A stretch of DNA of 24,307 nucleotides from a virus (lineage: Duplodnaviria; Caudoviricetes), in IMG/VR virus record IMGVR_UViG_3300014656_000971, positions 1-24,307 of that record, one strand, 5' to 3'. Below, one piece after another: positions 10,087-24,196 of the stretch. The position numbers and the translations under genes were made by a program. A model generated the notes under the pieces. That model had not been told where the DNA came from and searched no databases. It saw only the letters and a program-made list of their open reading frames with translations. Positions within the stretch are counted from its first letter, which is position 1. Each line of letters starts with the position of its first letter.

Positions 10087-13000
10087 CTACAAAAGGCAGG
10101 CACCACCAGAACAACTTACTTCTTCTTCTGGTTTTGTGTTATCTTCTAGTTCTGTAAGCTGTGTATAATCCACATGTTGAAAGCTATCTTTTAAATCACA
10201 ATATAGCTTCCAATTATATACATCTTTCATACAGAATGTTAATTTCTTAAAATCATCATTAAAATATTTTTGAGCAAACTTATACGCCTTTTCGCAGAAA
10301 GTTGCTTGTTTGTGTAGTTTAGCAAAAGTAGATGAAACAATGGGGTATTTATCTATATCTATGGTTTTCAGTGTTTGTTTAACAAAGTCTTTATTTAAAA
10401 TAGCATCACAAGCTGCCCACAAATTGTTATCAAAAGCAGATAATCCCAACTCAATTAATCCAGAACACCATATAGCACCATCACCATATTGTCTAACTAT
10501 TTCATGACTCATATGAACAGCATATAGTGGAGCTTGTGGAAAATCTTTGTCTCCGCTTATAGGTATAAGTGTAATACCATTAAAATATTGCTGATTATCA
10601 AAAATATAATCAATTACACTTGACCACTCATCATCTTTAACAGTAATAGTATTGCTTACACTATGATTTAACCACTGTTTTACACATAAGGACTCATCCT
10701 TGCCATTGTTTACCCAGTATTCCTGAATGTCTTTCACAATTTCTAACATTTGTAACGCAGGAAGTTGATTTTTTGTTTTTGCTCCAACAGGAACCTCAAT
10801 AGGAAAGTGAATAATATCATCTGTATCATTACTATCCCATACGGATTTTTCACACGCTTGACTATTAAATTTACGAAACCATTGGTATGCTGTTTCTGTT
10901 CTGTTGGCTTGAACTCGTCTTAAATATCTAGTAGCATGATGTGGATGAACCCCCGCCGATACACCCAACACACAAGAAGTATTACCGTCTGGTTTTAAAC
11001 AAGTTGCTCTAGCGGCAGGATTAATACCAATCTTTTTTGCCATATTTTTATTTACGGTAAGAATATATTTAGCAACTTTCATTAGATATTCTTTATTTAA
11101 AACAATTTCATCGTTTTCCATGATGCCGGTGATAGATACACCCAATAAAGCTTCTCGTTCTGTAATTTTTTCTGAAGTACTACCTAAATAATCAAACTTA
11201 GTAAATCCTGCTTGTAATGTTCCAAGGATAGCTGCTGCTTTAGCCCTCTCTAAAAAATCATCTAACGATTCTATGTTTGAACCATTGATAGTACACAAGT
11301 TACATACTTGCCAACCACTTTTATTTGTTTCTATATCTATTGGATATAAAGAAACTTCACCACAATTAGCTACATTACACCCATTTGTCCAATATGTATG
11401 AGAATTATTATTCACTGTTAATGAAAAGGTTTCTTCATTAGATAGTAATGTATTATTGTAAATTAAATAAGTTTTCTTTCGATGTGATTGTTTGCGTGTT
11501 TGTTTAATAATATCTTCTAATTTTTGCTGTTTATATTGTTGAATAAAACCTATATATTTAGCAAAGATATCTCTATTACAAGTTATGTTTAAATCATAAC
11601 TTTGTTTACACTTATATTTTCCATTACTAAATTGTATATTTTTTGACTTATTGGTTGTATAATACGATCTAATACCTATAGCAGACAACATGTTTTGAAC
11701 ATTAAGTATTACTGTTAAAGATGATGCTTGAAGAGTAATTCTATTGCCACATATTCCACCGTTGGCAGAATATAATCCTCTTAAAAAACCGCAAACAGTA
11801 TTAAAGTTACCATATAAAAAACGTTTTGGTACAACCCTATCATAAGTTAATGGTAGTTCTTCGTATTTTATAGTGGTTTGAATTTCATAAGCTATGTTCT
11901 TTTTTAAACCCGGTCTATATTTTATAATAAATTCATTTATAGAATCGGCAAAATAATCTTGATCGTTTTTACCAATACATAAATAAACTAAATTATTAGA
12001 TGCTTTATGAACAGACCCGTCTCCAATTACCAAACCATCCATAACATCTTGTTGATTTATTGTAACATTTGCTAATAGCGGACCTTGTAGAACATCAATA
12101 GATTTTGCATCTTGTATGCTTGTTTTTTGACCATTAACAAGAACTTGATGATTATCTGTGCCATAAAAAACGTTAGCGGTTGTTTGATATTGATATACAT
12201 TATTATAACCGGTTGATATCTTATTGTTTACCGTAGTCCAACCTTCTTGACTCCAAATTTGATCTCCAACATTAATATCTTCGACGGTTGATATCCCCCT
12301 TGGTGTCAATACCGTTGCCCATTTTGGCTGACATGGATTAATTACAACTTCAACATCCTCTTCAAAAATAAATCCAGGTTCTCCATATTCTTTACAATTA
12401 TTTACAATATTAGTGAATGTTTGTTTATCGAATTGTCCTCTAAGCAATACCACAGAATTGTTTGCTCTTGCCCTTTGTGGATTTTCTTCTCTCCAACTAC
12501 CGGTTTTAGCTTTCATCATTTCTTCATCGTCTAATGAAAACATTGCTAAAAGGGCTGCTCGACGAAGCCCTCCTGATAACGTAGCATTAGACACATGGCA
12601 TACTATATCATAAGCATCAATTGGTCTTAATCTTTTTTGATCGTTTTTAATACACCTATTTAATAAAATTTTTATTTGATGTAGAGCATTTCGTAAGCCG
12701 TCTGATCCAGGAGCTTTACCAACACCAGAACTTAGTGAAGACCCTTTCGGACGAATATGAGTATAATCAAAGTCTATATTACAAGGTTCTACAAAATATG
12801 ACTTTAATAATTCTCCTAAAGCGTCTGCCCAATGTTCTATGCTATCTTCTATTATATAAGTACGTCTAGATAAATTATCCCGAGATTTAAATGTAGGTAA
12901 TTGTTTTACGTGATGGTTTTGAACACTAAATCCTACACCAGCCCCACACAAACTCATCCAAAAACATTCTTGAAAAAATCTTAATCTATTACAATGAGAA

Positions 13001-13272
13001 CCAGAACAATTAAAAACTCTTGCATTTTTAATTAATGCTGGTCGGCCACCATATTGTAAAATTCTTTGACTTCCCAACACCTTCTTTTTCTGCATCATAT
13101 CATATGCCCAATTAATATCATCATCAATATTTTTATCAGCATATTTTTCTAACATCATCTGTCGAACACGATCTACAGCTTCTACCCACGTCTCACGTCT
13201 TTGTTTTTGTTTGTTCCATCGGGCATATTTAGAAACAAAAGTATAGTTTTGCAACTCCTTTAACGCCGTCAT
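10087..13272 (-). CDS. nrdJ: class II (adenosylcobalamin-dependent) ribonucleotide reductase, RtpR/NrdJ type, intein-containing
   Basis: KYARW...RRETW, FNCS, GAGVGFS, GGLRRAA, NP[intein]CGE, QVCNL, TCLKPDGNTS, C-terminal CSGGAC redox cysteines; no small-subunit gene in the window. Confidence 0.92.
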   Translation of the reverse strand: MTALKELQNYTFVSKYARWNKQKQRRETWVEAVDRVRQMMLEKYADKNIDDDINWAYDMMQKKKVLGSQRILQYGGRPALIKNARVFNCSGSHCNRLRFFQECFWMSLCGAGVGFSVQNHHVKQLPTFKSRDNLSRRTYIIEDSIEHWADALGELLKSYFVEPCNIDFDYTHIRPKGSSLSSGVGKAPGSDGLRNALHQIKILLNRCIKNDQKRLRPIDAYDIVCHVSNATLSGGLRRAALLAMFSLDDEEMMKAKTGSWREENPQRARANNSVVLLRGQFDKQTFTNIVNNCKEYGEPGFIFEEDVEVVINPCQPKWATVLTPRGISTVEDINVGDQIWSQEGWTTVNNKISTGYNNVYQYQTTANVFYGTDNHQVLVNGQKTSIQDAKSIDVLQGPLLANVTINQQDVMDGLVIGDGSVHKASNNLVYLCIGKNDQDYFADSINEFIIKYRPGLKKNIAYEIQTTIKYEELPLTYDRVVPKRFLYGNFNTVCGFLRGLYSANGGICGNRITLQASSLTVILNVQNMLSAIGIRSYYTTNKSKNIQFSNGKYKCKQSYDLNITCNRDIFAKYIGFIQQYKQQKLEDIIKQTRKQSHRKKTYLIYNNTLLSNEETFSLTVNNNSHTYWTNGCNVANCGEVSLYPIDIETNKSGWQVCNLCTINGSNIESLDDFLERAKAAAILGTLQAGFTKFDYLGSTSEKITEREALLGVSITGIMENDEIVLNKEYLMKVAKYILTVNKNMAKKIGINPAARATCLKPDGNTSCVLGVSAGVHPHHATRYLRRVQANRTETAYQWFRKFNSQACEKSVWDSNDTDDIIHFPIEVPVGAKTKNQLPALQMLEIVKDIQEYWVNNGKDESLCVKQWLNHSVSNTITVKDDEWSSVIDYIFDNQQYFNGITLIPISGDKDFPQAPLYAVHMSHEIVRQYGDGAIWCSGLIELGLSAFDNNLWAACDAILNKDFVKQTLKTIDIDKYPIVSSTFAKLHKQATFCEKAYKFAQKYFNDDFKKLTFCMKDVYNWKLYCDLKDSFQHVDYTQLTELEDNTKPEEEVSCSGGACLL
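11365..12333 (-). mobile_element. intein (323 aa) with LAGLIDADG homing endonuclease inside nrdJ
   Basis: Splits NP|CGE: starts CQPKWATV, ends YWTNGCNVAN followed by +1 Cys; block B TDNH; LAGLIDADG-like helices MDGLVIGDGS and FLRGLYSANG. Confidence 0.92.
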
Positions 13273-20671: not shown

Positions 20672-21769
20672 TCATTTACTTATTCTACAAAATTGACCAC
20701 ATTTACTCATATCTTTTAAGGACTGTGCTCCAATATATGTGCAGCAGGAACGAATGCCACCGCATATTTCTTGAACGACATTATCAATCGGTCCTTTATA
20801 TGGAACTTCACTTATCTTGCCTTCAGATGCTCTATAGTTTTTTTTGCCATTACCGTGTTGTTCTTGAGCATAATGAGAGGACATACCATAGAATTTTAAA
20901 GATTTTTTCTTTTGTTCGGTAAACTCCTTCTTTACCATCTGTTTTTTAATACCGTCATATGAATAAAGCGAATGATTAGATTCGTAAGTCCATATTCCTT
21001 CACATTCTTCTACACCAGCAAACATTCCGCCCAGCATTGTGAAGTCCGCTCCTCCACATAAACTCTTACATATATCTCCCGGGGTTTTGCACCCACCATC
21101 GCTACAAATTAAACCTAATTGTTTATCATTAGATTTTAATCCGTGAACCGCTTGCGAACACTCTATTACTGCTGATAATTGTGGATATCCTACACCAGCT
21201 ACTTGACTAGTTTGGCAACACGACCCTTGTGAAATGCCCGTTTTTATAATATCTACTCCCCCATGAATAATTAGTTCTTGTGCCATTCCACTTGTACAAA
21301 CATTTCCGGCAAGAATAATAGCGTGTGGTAAACTACTTCTTACTTGTTTACAAAACTTTACGAAGCACTCCATATAGGCATTTGGAACATCAATACATAA
21401 ATTTGGTGCAGTGCCAAGAATACCAGTCAATTCATATACCTTTTGGTGGTCTTCTTCGCCGTATCCTATACTGACCCAATTATATTCAATACTACCTTTC
21501 GTTTGAAAGAATTGTGCTAATTCGCTTAATGTATAATATTTGTGTAAACATGTAACCATTTTATGTTTATTTAAAGCATTTGCTAATGTAAAATTTGCTA
21601 TTGGCACCATATTTGAACATATGATAGGTATTCCAGTCCAAGTTCTAGTAGAGTGATAAAATTTAAAGGTTCGTTCAAGTTCTACATTATTACGACTATT
21701 TAATGTTGTTCTTTGTGGTACAATAAAAACATCATCAAAACCAAGTTTTCTATCTTGAATAATTTTCAT
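20672..21769 (-). CDS. guaC: GMP reductase
   Basis: LGFDDVFIVP, catalytic loop GSCCQT..VAGVGYPQLSAV, SDGG, GADFTMLGGM, FYGMSS, YRASEGK, GGIRSCCTYIGA. Confidence 0.9.
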   Translation of the reverse strand: MKIIQDRKLGFDDVFIVPQRTTLNSRNNVELERTFKFYHSTRTWTGIPIICSNMVPIANFTLANALNKHKMVTCLHKYYTLSELAQFFQTKGSIEYNWVSIGYGEEDHQKVYELTGILGTAPNLCIDVPNAYMECFVKFCKQVRSSLPHAIILAGNVCTSGMAQELIIHGGVDIIKTGISQGSCCQTSQVAGVGYPQLSAVIECSQAVHGLKSNDKQLGLICSDGGCKTPGDICKSLCGGADFTMLGGMFAGVEECEGIWTYESNHSLYSYDGIKKQMVKKEFTEQKKKSLKFYGMSSHYAQEQHGNGKKNYRASEGKISEVPYKGPIDNVVQEICGGIRSCCTYIGAQSLKDMSKCGQFCRISK

Positions 21770-21775
21770 TTTAAA

Positions 21776-22210
21776 CTATATCTCCCAAGGAAATGTAATC
21801 CAAAAATTTGTAATTTTCACATAAAAATTAGGTTCTGGTTTACCTTCTGGTTTCCAAAATAAACTAGCAATATGTACTTGTGAGTTATGACCCCACTTTT
21901 CAATAAATGTTCTCACCGTTTTTCCTTTATCTACAATATCGTCTACTAATAAGATATAATTCCAATAATTTTCCTCAAAATCTATATTCTCTATTACCGT
22001 ATCATTATCATAATAACTTATGTGTACTTCTCTATGTGGTAAATGTAGTGCTTGGGCAATTGGTTGACTAATATGTAGTCCGCCGTTTTTTATTCCAACA
22101 ACCACCTGGTATTTGTGTATTGTTTTAACTTGATATTCTTGAAGTTGACGAATCAACTCTATCGTCATATCTTCTATTTGGGATGGGGTACAATATGTTT
22201 TATCCATCAT
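21776..22210 (-). CDS. purine phosphoribosyltransferase (Gpt/Hpt-like, type I PRTase)
   Basis: GIKNGGL, PRPP-binding LLVDDIVDKGKT, C-terminal WITFPWE. Confidence 0.85.
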   Translation of the reverse strand: MMDKTYCTPSQIEDMTIELIRQLQEYQVKTIHKYQVVVGIKNGGLHISQPIAQALHLPHREVHISYYDNDTVIENIDFEENYWNYILLVDDIVDKGKTVRTFIEKWGHNSQVHIASLFWKPEGKPEPNFYVKITNFWITFPWEI

Positions 22211-22686
22211 CTTCCGCTTGACCCAAATCCTTGTTTACCTCTTTTGGTTTTCATTAATTCATCCACTACTTTTGGTTTAATGTTTAGTAACGGAATAAAT
22301 ATAAGTTGTGCTATTTTATCGCCGGGATTAATTGTTTGTGGCAAAGAACTCAAACTAACAATACACACTTTTATCGGGCCAATGTATCCTGGATCTATTA
22401 TTCCGGCGATTACATGTAAACCTCTTTCTGACGCATTTCCAGACCTATCCTTAATAAAACAACCATATCCTTCCGGACAAGCGATTTGTATACCTGTACT
22501 GAATAAGTGTCGCTCTCCAGTATACAAAGTATATTGTAGTTTTTTGTCTTCTTTGTTATGATGTAAATAATTTTCCGGTTGAAATTTCTTATCTTCTACA
22601 CAATATAAGTCCCATCCTAAATCATTATCATAATTTTTTGTTGGAACCTTGGCATCTTTGTGTATTAATTGCACTTCAAAATACAT
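22207..22686 (-). CDS. dut: trimeric dUTPase
   Basis: Motifs GWDL, DRSG, AGIIDPGYIG, IAQLI, RGKQGFGSSG; start re-called to ATG 22686 with GGAG SD. Confidence 0.93.
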   Translation of the reverse strand: MYFEVQLIHKDAKVPTKNYDNDLGWDLYCVEDKKFQPENYLHHNKEDKKLQYTLYTGERHLFSTGIQIACPEGYGCFIKDRSGNASERGLHVIAGIIDPGYIGPIKVCIVSLSSLPQTINPGDKIAQLIFIPLLNIKPKVVDELMKTKRGKQGFGSSGR

Positions 22687-22698
22687 TTTTTCTCCAAT

Positions 22699-22733
22699 AA
22701 TAAAAGAACCTGTCACTTCTAGAAGTAACAGGT
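22699..22733 (-). terminator. intrinsic terminator ending the tRNA/ncRNA operon
   Basis: ACCTGTTACTT-CTAG-AAGTGACAGGT 11-bp stem (one G-U) followed by TCTTTTATT. Confidence 0.75.
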
Positions 22734-22765
22734 AAAAATATATTATAATAAACCACATCTATCAG

Positions 22766-22838
22766 CAGAGGCGTAAGGAGTTGAACCTTAGAAAAATATG
22801 CTTCAAAGACATACTGTAGAACCGTCTACAACACCTCT
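22766..22838 (-). tRNA. tRNA-Gln(UUG), atypical D arm
   Basis: Acceptor AGAGGTG/CGCCTCT, discriminator G; D arm TGTAGA-CGGT-TCTACA; anticodon loop CTTTGAA; T arm TAAGG-TTCAACT-CCTTA; no encoded CCA. Confidence 0.8.
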
Positions 22839-23039
22839 CTAGTCCCACCCACCCAACCATTCCTTTATACTCTGAACTAGAGTACATGAAAGGCATCGAC
22901 AAAAACTTAACCTCATTATGACGAGTAATAAGATGTCCATTTCGTCAGAATACAATTATTTGCACGAAATTGTGCTTTTACTAATTATATTCAAATGAAC
23001 TGTTTTTGTTTCAACCAGTTGTAGTCATAAAGACTACAG
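22839..23039 (-). ncRNA. candidate 201-nt structured RNA in the Ile-Gln tRNA spacer
   Basis: Several hairpins with G-U pairs on the minus strand and a 6-bp bulge-loop complementarity (TGACGA/TCGTCA); no listed ORF. Confidence 0.6.
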
Positions 23040-23112
23040 TTGTGTGCTTGAGAATCGAACTCAACTAAACAGGCTCATCAGACCAGCATCTTCTCCAGAG
23101 GATCAACACACA
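23040..23112 (-). tRNA. tRNA-Ile(GAU)
   Basis: Acceptor TGTGTGT/GCACACA, discriminator A; anticodon arm CTGGT-CTGATGA-GCCTG (one U-U); T arm TTGAG-TTCGATT-CTCAA. Confidence 0.8.
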
Positions 23113-23115
23113 ATT

Positions 23116-23178
23116 TGAGCAGAGCACACACTTACAACTGTCCAACGATGCTCAGCGTTGACTATTTTTGTTGTAAGT
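23116..23178 (-). ncRNA. 63-nt pseudoknot motif, copy 1
   Basis: ACTTACAAC AAAAATA GTCAACG CTGAGCAT CGTTGGACA GTTGTAAGT GTGT GCTCTGCTCA; covaries with copy 2. Confidence 0.8.
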
Positions 23179-23184
23179 CTAAGG

Positions 23185-23257
23185 TGGCGAGAGTCAGAAT
23201 TGCACTGACGCCAGTGTGCTTATGAGACACACGGTGGAACTAACACCACTTCTCGCT
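23185..23257 (-). tRNA. tRNA with CAU anticodon (Met, fMet or Ile2)
   Basis: Acceptor AGCGAGA/TCTCGCC (A1-C72 mismatch), then A73-CC; anticodon arm TGTGT-CTCATAA-GCACA; T arm GTCAG-TGCAATT-CTGAC. Confidence 0.78.
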
Positions 23258-23285
23258 ATGTTTTATTATAAACAAAGTTATTAAA

Positions 23286-23354
23286 AGCCCCTTCAGAGAA
23301 TCGAACTCTGCCTAATTGTTTACAAAACAATCGTACAAACCATTAATAAGGGGC
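23286..23354 (-). tRNA. tRNA-Thr(UGU), short and poorly paired D arm (69 nt)
   Basis: Perfect acceptor GCCCCTT/AAGGGGC; ATTGT-TTTGTAA-ACAAT; CAGAG-TTCGATT-CTCTG. Confidence 0.75.
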
Positions 23355-23356
23355 GG

Positions 23357-23438
23357 CGGAAGCAAAGGGAATCGAACCCCTAAATCTTTCGATCAACTGT
23401 TTTCAGGACAGTTTCCTTAGCCAGTTCGGATTACTTCC
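23357..23438 (-). tRNA. tRNA-Ser(UGA)
   Basis: Acceptor GGAAGTA/TGCTTCC, then G73-CC; ACTGT-CCTGAAA-ACAGT; long variable arm GATC-GAAA-GATT; AGGGG-TTCGATT-CCCTT. Confidence 0.88.
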
Positions 23439-23446
23439 TTATATAT

Positions 23447-23474
23447 TATCGTCAAAACTCTCAAAAATCTTGAG
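23447..23474 (-). promoter_or_regulatory. sigma28-like promoter CTCAAG-N17-CGATA for the tRNA operon
   Basis: CTCAAG ATTTTTGAGAGTTTTGA CGATA ending 8 nt before the tRNA-Ser 5' end; same spacing as 10043-10070. Confidence 0.65.
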
Positions 23475-23509
23475 TTAAATTTTGAGAAAACCATACAAAA
23501 TTTCAAAAA

Positions 23510-23572
23510 TGAGCAGAGCCCCATCGTATCTCTGTCCAACGATGCTCAGCGTTGACTACTCTTGAGACACGA
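23510..23572 (-). ncRNA. 63-nt pseudoknot motif, copy 2
   Basis: TCGTGTCTC AAGAGTA GTCAACG CTGAGCAT CGTTGGACA GAGATACGA TGGG GCTCTGCTCA; starts 5 nt after the stop of the 150-aa ORF. Confidence 0.8.
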
Positions 23573-23577
23573 CACGC

Positions 23578-24030
23578 TTATGGCGTAACTCTTTGATAAC
23601 TAAATGTATTAACTCTACTAATACCAGAAAACATTGGACTTCCACTATATCTAATATATCTTCTATCTCCAGACACATTGACTTGTGTTGTAAAATTAGC
23701 ACCTTGTGGCAACCATATAATTACTGGCCTATACCCAACGTGTTGATTAATTATATTGCGTGTTCTTCTATCAAAATCTTGTTGTGCTAAAAACTGTCTC
23801 ATTGACAAAGGTTCTGAAAGTTGTCTATTCCATATTGGACCAAGGACTTTTTCAATTTCCACTTTTTCCTGCTCTATAAACTTATTAACATTTTCTAAAG
23901 GGGTATCGTCAAAGATATATTCTTGACTATATGCCTTTTGACAGTATAACGGCACTATTACAAATATAACAAATAAAATAATCAAAATAAATATTATATA
24001 ATTAAGATTGTCTAGTATCTTGTTGAACAT
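23578..24030 (-). CDS. signal-peptide/TM protein with a planctomycete-type secretin-like C-terminal motif
   Basis: Hydrophobic N-terminus ending AYS; C-terminal VGYRPVIIWLPQGANFTTQVNVSGDRRYIRYSGSPMFSGISRVNTF. Confidence 0.65.
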   Translation of the reverse strand: MFNKILDNLNYIIFILIILFVIFVIVPLYCQKAYSQEYIFDDTPLENVNKFIEQEKVEIEKVLGPIWNRQLSEPLSMRQFLAQQDFDRRTRNIINQHVGYRPVIIWLPQGANFTTQVNVSGDRRYIRYSGSPMFSGISRVNTFSYQRVTP

Positions 24031-24196
24031 TTAAATTCTCTATAACTTTTTCTATTAAACCCTTTGATTTGTTTACTTCTATGGCACGACCTTGTTTAGC
24101 AGCTTTTTTTTTGGCATCCGGACCAGTATAGCATTTTCCAGACTCTCCAAACTTCCATCCACTTACCCCATTATTTGTACATCTCATTAATGGCAT
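24002..24196 (-). CDS. small basic conserved phage protein
   Basis: MPLMRC...GWKFGESGKCYTGPDAKKKAAKQGRAI resembles a small uncharacterised phage family (from memory); AAGGGG SD. Confidence 0.75.
   Translation of the reverse strand: MPLMRCTNNGVSGWKFGESGKCYTGPDAKKKAAKQGRAIEVNKSKGLIEKVIENLNVQQDTRQS

Follow-up and report, generated by a model that had tools for sequence, protein, structure and literature searches.

Two copies of a 63-nt motif on the minus strand of a 24,307-nt phage fragment (hereafter the window, meaning the whole stretch of DNA analyzed) constitute a real, selected, and uncatalogued RNA element present twice in one phage. Judging from its sequence and placement, the element likely marks or cuts a long tRNA transcript, and it is possibly a ribozyme. 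Few classes of natural self-cleaving ribozymes are known; a new fold, if true, would matter for RNA catalysis and for the maturation of phage tRNAs without host enzymes. The weight of the case is limited by its sample of two sequences from one phage.

The fragment, a virus record by classification whose sequence is present in groundwater metagenome runs, carries genes for DnaB, primase, a RecA-like recombinase, ribonucleotide reductase, ligase, and dUTPase. Its DnaB has more than 3,000 environmental relatives (E value of ≤1e-30), the best of which are 60 to 70% identical, and the matches to cultured phages among those listed are <30% identical. On the minus strand, a 150-aa orphan open reading frame (ORF) is followed by copy 2, a 71-nt spacer, tRNA-Ser, tRNA-Thr, and tRNA-CAU, and then by copy 1, tRNA-Ile, a 200-nt structured spacer, tRNA-Gln, a terminator-like hairpin, and the dUTPase gene. 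The tRNA-Ser and tRNA-Thr genes, which lie between the motif copies, were absent from the initial annotation. The features of this region are as follows.

23578..24030, minus strand: 150-aa ORF immediately upstream of copy 2, with no family match and no homologues
23510..23572, minus strand: motif copy 2, 63 nt, 5 nt past the stop codon of the 150-aa ORF, with a U-rich run next
23439..23509, minus strand: AT-rich spacer, 71 nt, with a U-run and then a long hairpin (z of -1.8)
23357..23438, minus strand: divergent tRNA-Ser(UGA), 36.9 bits
23286..23354, minus strand: divergent tRNA-Thr(UGU), 33.1 bits
23183..23257, minus strand: divergent tRNA with a CAU anticodon, 20.5 bits, ending 4 nt before copy 1
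23116..23178, minus strand: motif copy 1, 63 nt, occupying nearly all of the gap from tRNA-CAU to tRNA-Ile
23039..23112, minus strand: divergent tRNA-Ile(GAU), starting 3 nt past copy 1
22765..22838, minus strand: divergent tRNA-Gln(UUG), final gene of the array, 36.2 bits
22708..22733, minus strand: intrinsic-terminator-like hairpin ending the tRNA array, by consensus match only

The placement given in the initial annotation was confirmed for both copies. Copy 1 takes up 63 of the 70 nt between its two tRNAs (gaps of 4 and 3 nt) and thus nearly fills the spacer, and copy 2 stands behind an mRNA stop codon, starting 5 nt after it and ending 71 nt before tRNA-Ser. Three tRNAs and a distance of 394 nt separate the copies, and the window contains no third copy. 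Common to both contexts is the 5' side: each copy starts 4 to 6 nt after a tRNA or coding sequence ends (for copy 1, 4 nt past the tRNA end called by ARAGORN and 6 nt past the discriminator), and a G occupies position -1 in both. The gap to the next tRNA differs (3 nt for copy 1 versus 71 nt for copy 2). No RNA run was among the listed sequencing runs that carry the motif sequence. All five tRNAs of the array (22765-23438, minus strand) are divergent, with Rfam scores of 20 to 37 bits, versus mostly 53 to 74 bits for the tRNA arrays of two related phages, and tRNA-Ile was not listed at an E value of ≤10. Most of their stems are still paired, and none of the five encodes a full CCA.

The two copies, reported initially as minus-strand repeats of exactly 63 nt, align without gaps and are identical at 47 of 63 positions. 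The 27-nt core and the 3' 10-mer described as identical are indeed so (motif positions 15 to 41 and 54 to 63). Of the 16 differences, 11 fall in the 9-bp outer stem (P1), 2 in a purine-rich junction, and 3 right after P1; with boundaries chosen post hoc, the probability that all 16 lie outside the 37 core and tail positions is ~1e-8. The core pattern was found in none of 100 shuffles of the window. Copy 1 recurs without differences in contigs from two other studies (P2, run X2, and P3, run X4) and with one difference, at an unlisted position, in a contig of run X3; another X3 contig spans copy 2 except for its last 5 bases, again with zero differences, and a metagenome contig of the same phage (L462) has an identical copy 2. 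Because these contigs cover the copies, the motif is not an assembly slip; these contigs represent the same phage and therefore add no variation. The parts of the motif are as follows.

23170..23178 (copy 1) and 23564-23572 (copy 2), minus strand: 5' strand of P1, a covarying 9-bp stem, pairing with 23130-23138 and 23524-23532, respectively
23138..23164 (copy 1) and 23532-23558 (copy 2), minus strand: invariant 27-nt core, comprising the end of the purine-rich junction, a predicted inner stem with a bulged G, and an 8-nt loop
23149..23154 (copy 1) and 23543-23548 (copy 2), minus strand: loop hexamer, the predicted 5' strand of a pseudoknot, by complementarity only
23116..23125 (copy 1) and 23510-23519 (copy 2), minus strand: invariant 10-nt tail, consisting of 4 conserved unpaired bases and then the predicted 3' strand of the pseudoknot

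P1 is supported by covariation. Its nine pairs (motif positions 1 to 9 with 41 to 49) comprise, as first described, three unchanged pairs, five double changes, and one change from A-U to G-U, and 18 of 18 cells are paired, compared with only 19 to 42% of cells when the alignment is slid by 1 to 3 columns. Pair probabilities in P1 are 0.83 to 1.0 for the isolated copies. The G-U pair had also been taken to fix the strand as minus. The plus-strand reading does break one pair there (A-C), so the strand call rests on that single pair together with the strand of the flanking tRNAs. The hairpin proposed inside P1 folds as predicted, but its loop measures 8 nt and three more pairs are possible past the bulged G; the upper pairs of this inner stem form with probabilities of 0.92 to 0.98, and the three lower pairs and the bulge register form with probabilities of 0.15 to 0.53. 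As for the 6-bp pseudoknot, the claimed complementarity between loop and tail exists in both copies, but its pairs are invariant. Neither the seven pairs of the inner stem nor the six of the pseudoknot vary between the copies, and both helices are therefore predictions; because no homologue was found, the pseudoknot has no support from covariation. A 6-bp match between loop and tail arises by chance in 0.8 to 1.0% of tail shuffles and in 0.35% of the 14-mers of the window. The pseudoknot helix would contribute about -8 kcal/mol before loop costs, and, taken by itself, the nested fold does not stand out in stability from shuffles (z of 0.04 and -0.80).

The fold of copy 1 is kept in its genomic context (P1 probability of 0.85 to 0.98). 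For copy 2, the P1 probability ranges from 0 to 0.98 depending on the flanks chosen, and a register-shifted competing fold is lower by 2 to 7 kcal/mol, the energy of the knot not being counted. The bases directly before copy 2 (23573-23577, minus strand) repeat the first five bases of P1, which makes the register-shifted alternative possible. In these folding models, the competing fold counts against the proposed structure or hints at a switch.

Statistics bear out the initial description of an invariant core on a swappable stem: six of nine pairs changed in P1, versus none of the 13 pairs of the inner stem and pseudoknot (Fisher's exact test, P = 0.001). Had pairing been the sole constraint, changes would be expected among those 13 pairs as well. 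From this pattern, the core is likely held at the level of sequence, as it would be in a catalytic center or a binding surface. Since no homologue was found, recent copying could be part of the reason that the core is frozen, and such copying would need to skip the 3' strand of P1, which is located between core and tail.

No homologues were found outside this phage; a diverged family could have escaped, because the scans need near-exact words or a two-sequence model. In viral contigs, the inner-stem pattern with a free loop matched 24 times, the junction-base pattern 45 times, and the loop-plus-tail pattern 69 times, in no case with the motif. In one viral contig, an outer stem of 6 bp and a complement to the loop were present at other spacings, and the match was attributed to chance. 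In a viral scan of 18 of 64 parts, 54 of 120 matches had the motif's gap, and these were set aside, the matches listed being mostly from one protein-coding family. In genome contigs, there were no matches to the exact core, and none of the seven matches to the junction pattern had the motif. Three loci were recovered from metagenome contigs: the window itself (L463), the contig of the same phage mentioned above, and L464, which shares only a 17-nt hairpin in an unrelated context and was regarded as a chance match. Searches with blastn against phages and plasmids returned only chance pieces of 18 to 25 nt. A covariance model, narrow because it was built from the two copies only, had no match at 80 loci around relatives of a nearby 64-aa ORF. 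Against 50 of the 81 DnaB-related phage records, it gave one match at an E value of ≤1 (12.6 bits), which was rejected on inspection, and against six loci that included the tRNA arrays of two relatives, it gave four weak matches (≤11.7 bits), none credible. Topology-only descriptors returned 11 other matches at 9 loci in 1.25 Mb and 9 matches in 0.56 Mb, none alike in sequence, and the window contains no antisense target of >9 nt for the motif.

The initial annotation had named a strong hit to an existing Rfam family as what would remove novelty. No family matches the motif: with Rfam 15, the window yielded only tRNAs at an E value of ≤1, and the array (22750-23600) yielded only subthreshold noise for the motif at an E value of ≤10, including weak C/D-box matches attributed to chance (15 to 18 bits versus cutoffs of 42 to 45). 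The core, in three spellings, was absent from a full-text literature search, and the listings of topic searches contained no description of such a motif. It was likewise not in 6 supplementary files, a part of the material, of a large survey of structured phage RNAs (PMC10690425).

The initial judgment that the motif does not fit known self-cleaving ribozymes holds for the features of hammerhead, HDV/theta, pistol, and hatchet; for twister and twister-sister, it holds through Rfam only, whose models had no match at an E value of ≤1 in the window or ≤10 in 22750-23600. Neither copy, with 15-nt flanks, contains the hammerhead CUGAnGA, and GAAA occurs once, in one flank. The nested double pseudoknot of HDV and theta (P1-P2-P3-L3-P3-P1-J4/2-P2) can be placed loosely 6 and 5 times in the two copies, with no placement common to both among those listed. 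Self-scission by HDV-like and theta ribozymes depends on Mg2+. In theta and HDV-like ribozymes, the catalytic C is the first position of J4/2 (PMC10879173); because the HDV topology is absent, the motif offers no J4/2 in which a catalytic C could be placed. Theta ribozymes are defined (PMC10879173) by a cleavage site ≤5 nt from the 3' end of a phage tRNA and also occur isolated near ORFs. The 5' edge of copy 1 lies within that distance (4 nt), and copy 2 follows a stop codon instead. The motif resembles theta ribozymes in being small, pseudoknotted, and located in a phage tRNA array, with P1 first and the last strand closing the knot; in contrast, its 5' knot strand lies inside the apical loop, and its source is groundwater, theta's being gut. 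Pistol has three stems, a knot between L1 and the P2-P3 junction, and cleavage at the P3-P2 junction (PMC4604425). The motif shares with it a size class and a hairpin loop knotted to a downstream strand, but it has no third stem, its flanks differ between copies, and Rfam gave no match. Hatchet, with four stems (P1 to P4), 13 conserved bases, and a length-constrained P1 (PMC4604424), is similar in size class and in its P1, but the motif consists of two stems and a knot, with flanks that are not conserved and no Rfam match. The closest known systems are theta ribozymes by place and the exoribonuclease-resistant xrRNA-D by layout, and the motif lacks a defining feature of each.

The occurrence of two copies in two contexts suits a cis-acting element, and we lean slightly toward a boundary element of this kind, by whatever mechanism it might act. 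Within that reading, our tentative best guess is a processing element that would cleave itself near its 5' edge. It may, more doubtfully, represent a small self-cleaving ribozyme of a new structural class, with a layout not related to HDV/theta, which would cut tRNA and mRNA 3' ends from the array transcript. In the proposed mechanism, the purine-rich junction would bend P1 back along the inner stem; the similar lengths of P1 and the inner stem, together with the one-sided junction, mean that P1 could fold back with the 8-nt linker reaching the loop. The 8-nt loop would pair with the last 6 bases, and the resulting knot would place P1's 5' end next to the four unpaired, conserved bases that precede the terminal strand, where an active site could sit. 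Catalysis at the 5' edge of P1 is a guess. A cut there would serve tRNA and mRNA alike, as for theta ribozymes. Self-cleavage is put first among the guesses because a 3' cap would make little sense behind a tRNA that needs trimming, because a 5'-edge cut would serve both transcript types, and because the core is frozen.

Consistent with self-cleavage, P1 is free in sequence and yet pairs in a common 9-bp register in the two copies, the inner stem and knot show no change, and both copies begin 4 to 6 nt past the end of a functional unit. This spacing is weak evidence, because tight gene spacing is common in phage genomes. The size and pseudoknot of the motif also fit the profile of ribozyme candidates, at ~50 to 80 nt with a complex structure (PMC10085705). 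Against it, Rfam, core-word, and descriptor tests revealed no known ribozyme core in the motif, and 10 of 10 nonhammerhead HRIMA motifs tested showed no cleavage (PMC10085705). Self-cleavage is held no higher than tentative because such candidates often fail and no known core is present.

The frozen core would also suit the binding surface of a stable small RNA that binds a host or phage protein as a decoy, aptamer, or antitoxin mimic, and maturation of the flanking tRNAs would release copy 1 as a piece of ~70 nt with the knot guarding its 3' end. If true, this would add a new phage decoy RNA. Copy 1 takes up nearly the whole spacer and, as an excised piece, adopts the predicted fold (P1 probability of 0.85). 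Type III antitoxins are made as tandem short repeats that are cut into pseudoknot monomers, and they bind a cognate endoribonuclease and inhibit it. The motif resembles them, and the phage pseudo-ToxI RNA that mimics them (PMC5449768), in being a small, repeated, phage-encoded pseudoknot of fixed sequence; however, its copies are not in tandem but 394 nt apart with tRNAs between them, it has an extra outer stem, and Rfam gave no match. With no evident 5' release site for copy 2 and no partner protein indicated, we consider this reading doubtful. A mechanical exonuclease block is unlikely. In this reading, the knot would halt 5'-to-3' decay before it reaches the tRNAs, or 3'-to-5' trimming where the upstream mRNA ends; if true, a DNA phage would be added to the carriers of xrRNA-like knots. 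The knot strand forms the last conserved bases, and a U-run follows copy 2. The predicted layout (P1, internal loop, P2, and pairing of the apical loop with the 3' end) matches that of xrRNA-D from Tombusviridae and Luteoviridae (PMC6299227) and can be drawn in both copies, with P2 and the knot lacking covariation; bacterial RNase J1 is also stopped by xrRNAs (PMC8374639). The resistance of xrRNA-D to 5'-to-3' exoribonucleases depends on its knot. However, the motif resides in a DNA phage rather than a plant RNA virus and matches xrRNA-D neither in Rfam nor in sequence. The stems and knot of xrRNA-D are little conserved in sequence (PMC6299227), and because the inner stem and knot are frozen here, a mechanical block is somewhat disfavored. 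Known rings around the 5' end comprise 15 to 16 nt (PMC8374639), whereas 27 nt separate the knot strands here, a rough comparison by a count from sequence only. Such a block would also be of little use 3 nt before a would-be RNase P cut site.

Two further readings appear improbable. One is a nascent-RNA antitermination signal similar to the HK022 put RNAs, by which RNA polymerase would read through the array. The HK022 put RNA consists of two adjacent stem-loops that bind RNA polymerase. One motif copy stands at the head of the array and one inside it, terminator-like hairpins lie downstream, and a frozen core suits polymerase binding; however, the two-hairpin layout of put is absent, the motif being one nested hairpin with a knot. 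The match to a boxA consensus is just 7 of 12, nor does a promoter-like site above background account for the position (11 observed; 7.6 ± 2.6 expected). Equally improbable is a DNA-level hairpin, serving recombination or as the end of a single-strand transposon, or a nonfunctional duplicated relic. Single-strand DNA recognition sites resemble the motif in combining direct repeats and a bulged hairpin, the collections searched held no homologue, and the nested fold has ordinary stability. However, under DNA energy parameters, P1 of copy 2 does not form on either strand, and the G-U change favors RNA; a relic would not retain nine of nine pairs through 11 base changes. A riboswitch was considered in view of the nucleotide-metabolism genes downstream and was rejected, copy 1 having no room for an expression platform. 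Likenesses to a CRISPR repeat, attC, and REP were rejected as well, because P1 is not conserved in sequence and Rfam yielded no match.

A second candidate noncoding RNA is the 200-nt spacer that separates tRNA-Ile from tRNA-Gln (22839-23038, minus strand). It folds at -54.1 kcal/mol (z of -4.55, with none of 200 shuffles as good) and has no Rfam match, and one of its hairpin loops is complementary to a hexamer upstream of that hairpin. Behind the terminator-like hairpin that ends the array, genes for dUTPase, a phosphoribosyltransferase, and a GMP-reductase-like dehydrogenase follow one another (20672-22758, minus strand). The ribonucleotide reductase (10087-13272, minus strand; 1,061 aa) exceeds the length of its family profile, with an intein-like insertion apparent by eye. 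The 64-aa ORF (24002-24196, minus strand) belongs to a small unannotated family of 22 proteins, and tRNA or transfer-messenger RNA genes lie ≤4 kb away in 7 of the 80 viral loci around its relatives. Two related phages, L489 (3993-4079) and L490 (8155-8241), have a common array order that includes tRNA-Ser(ACU) and tRNA-Ile(UAU), anticodons that are unusual for bacteria.
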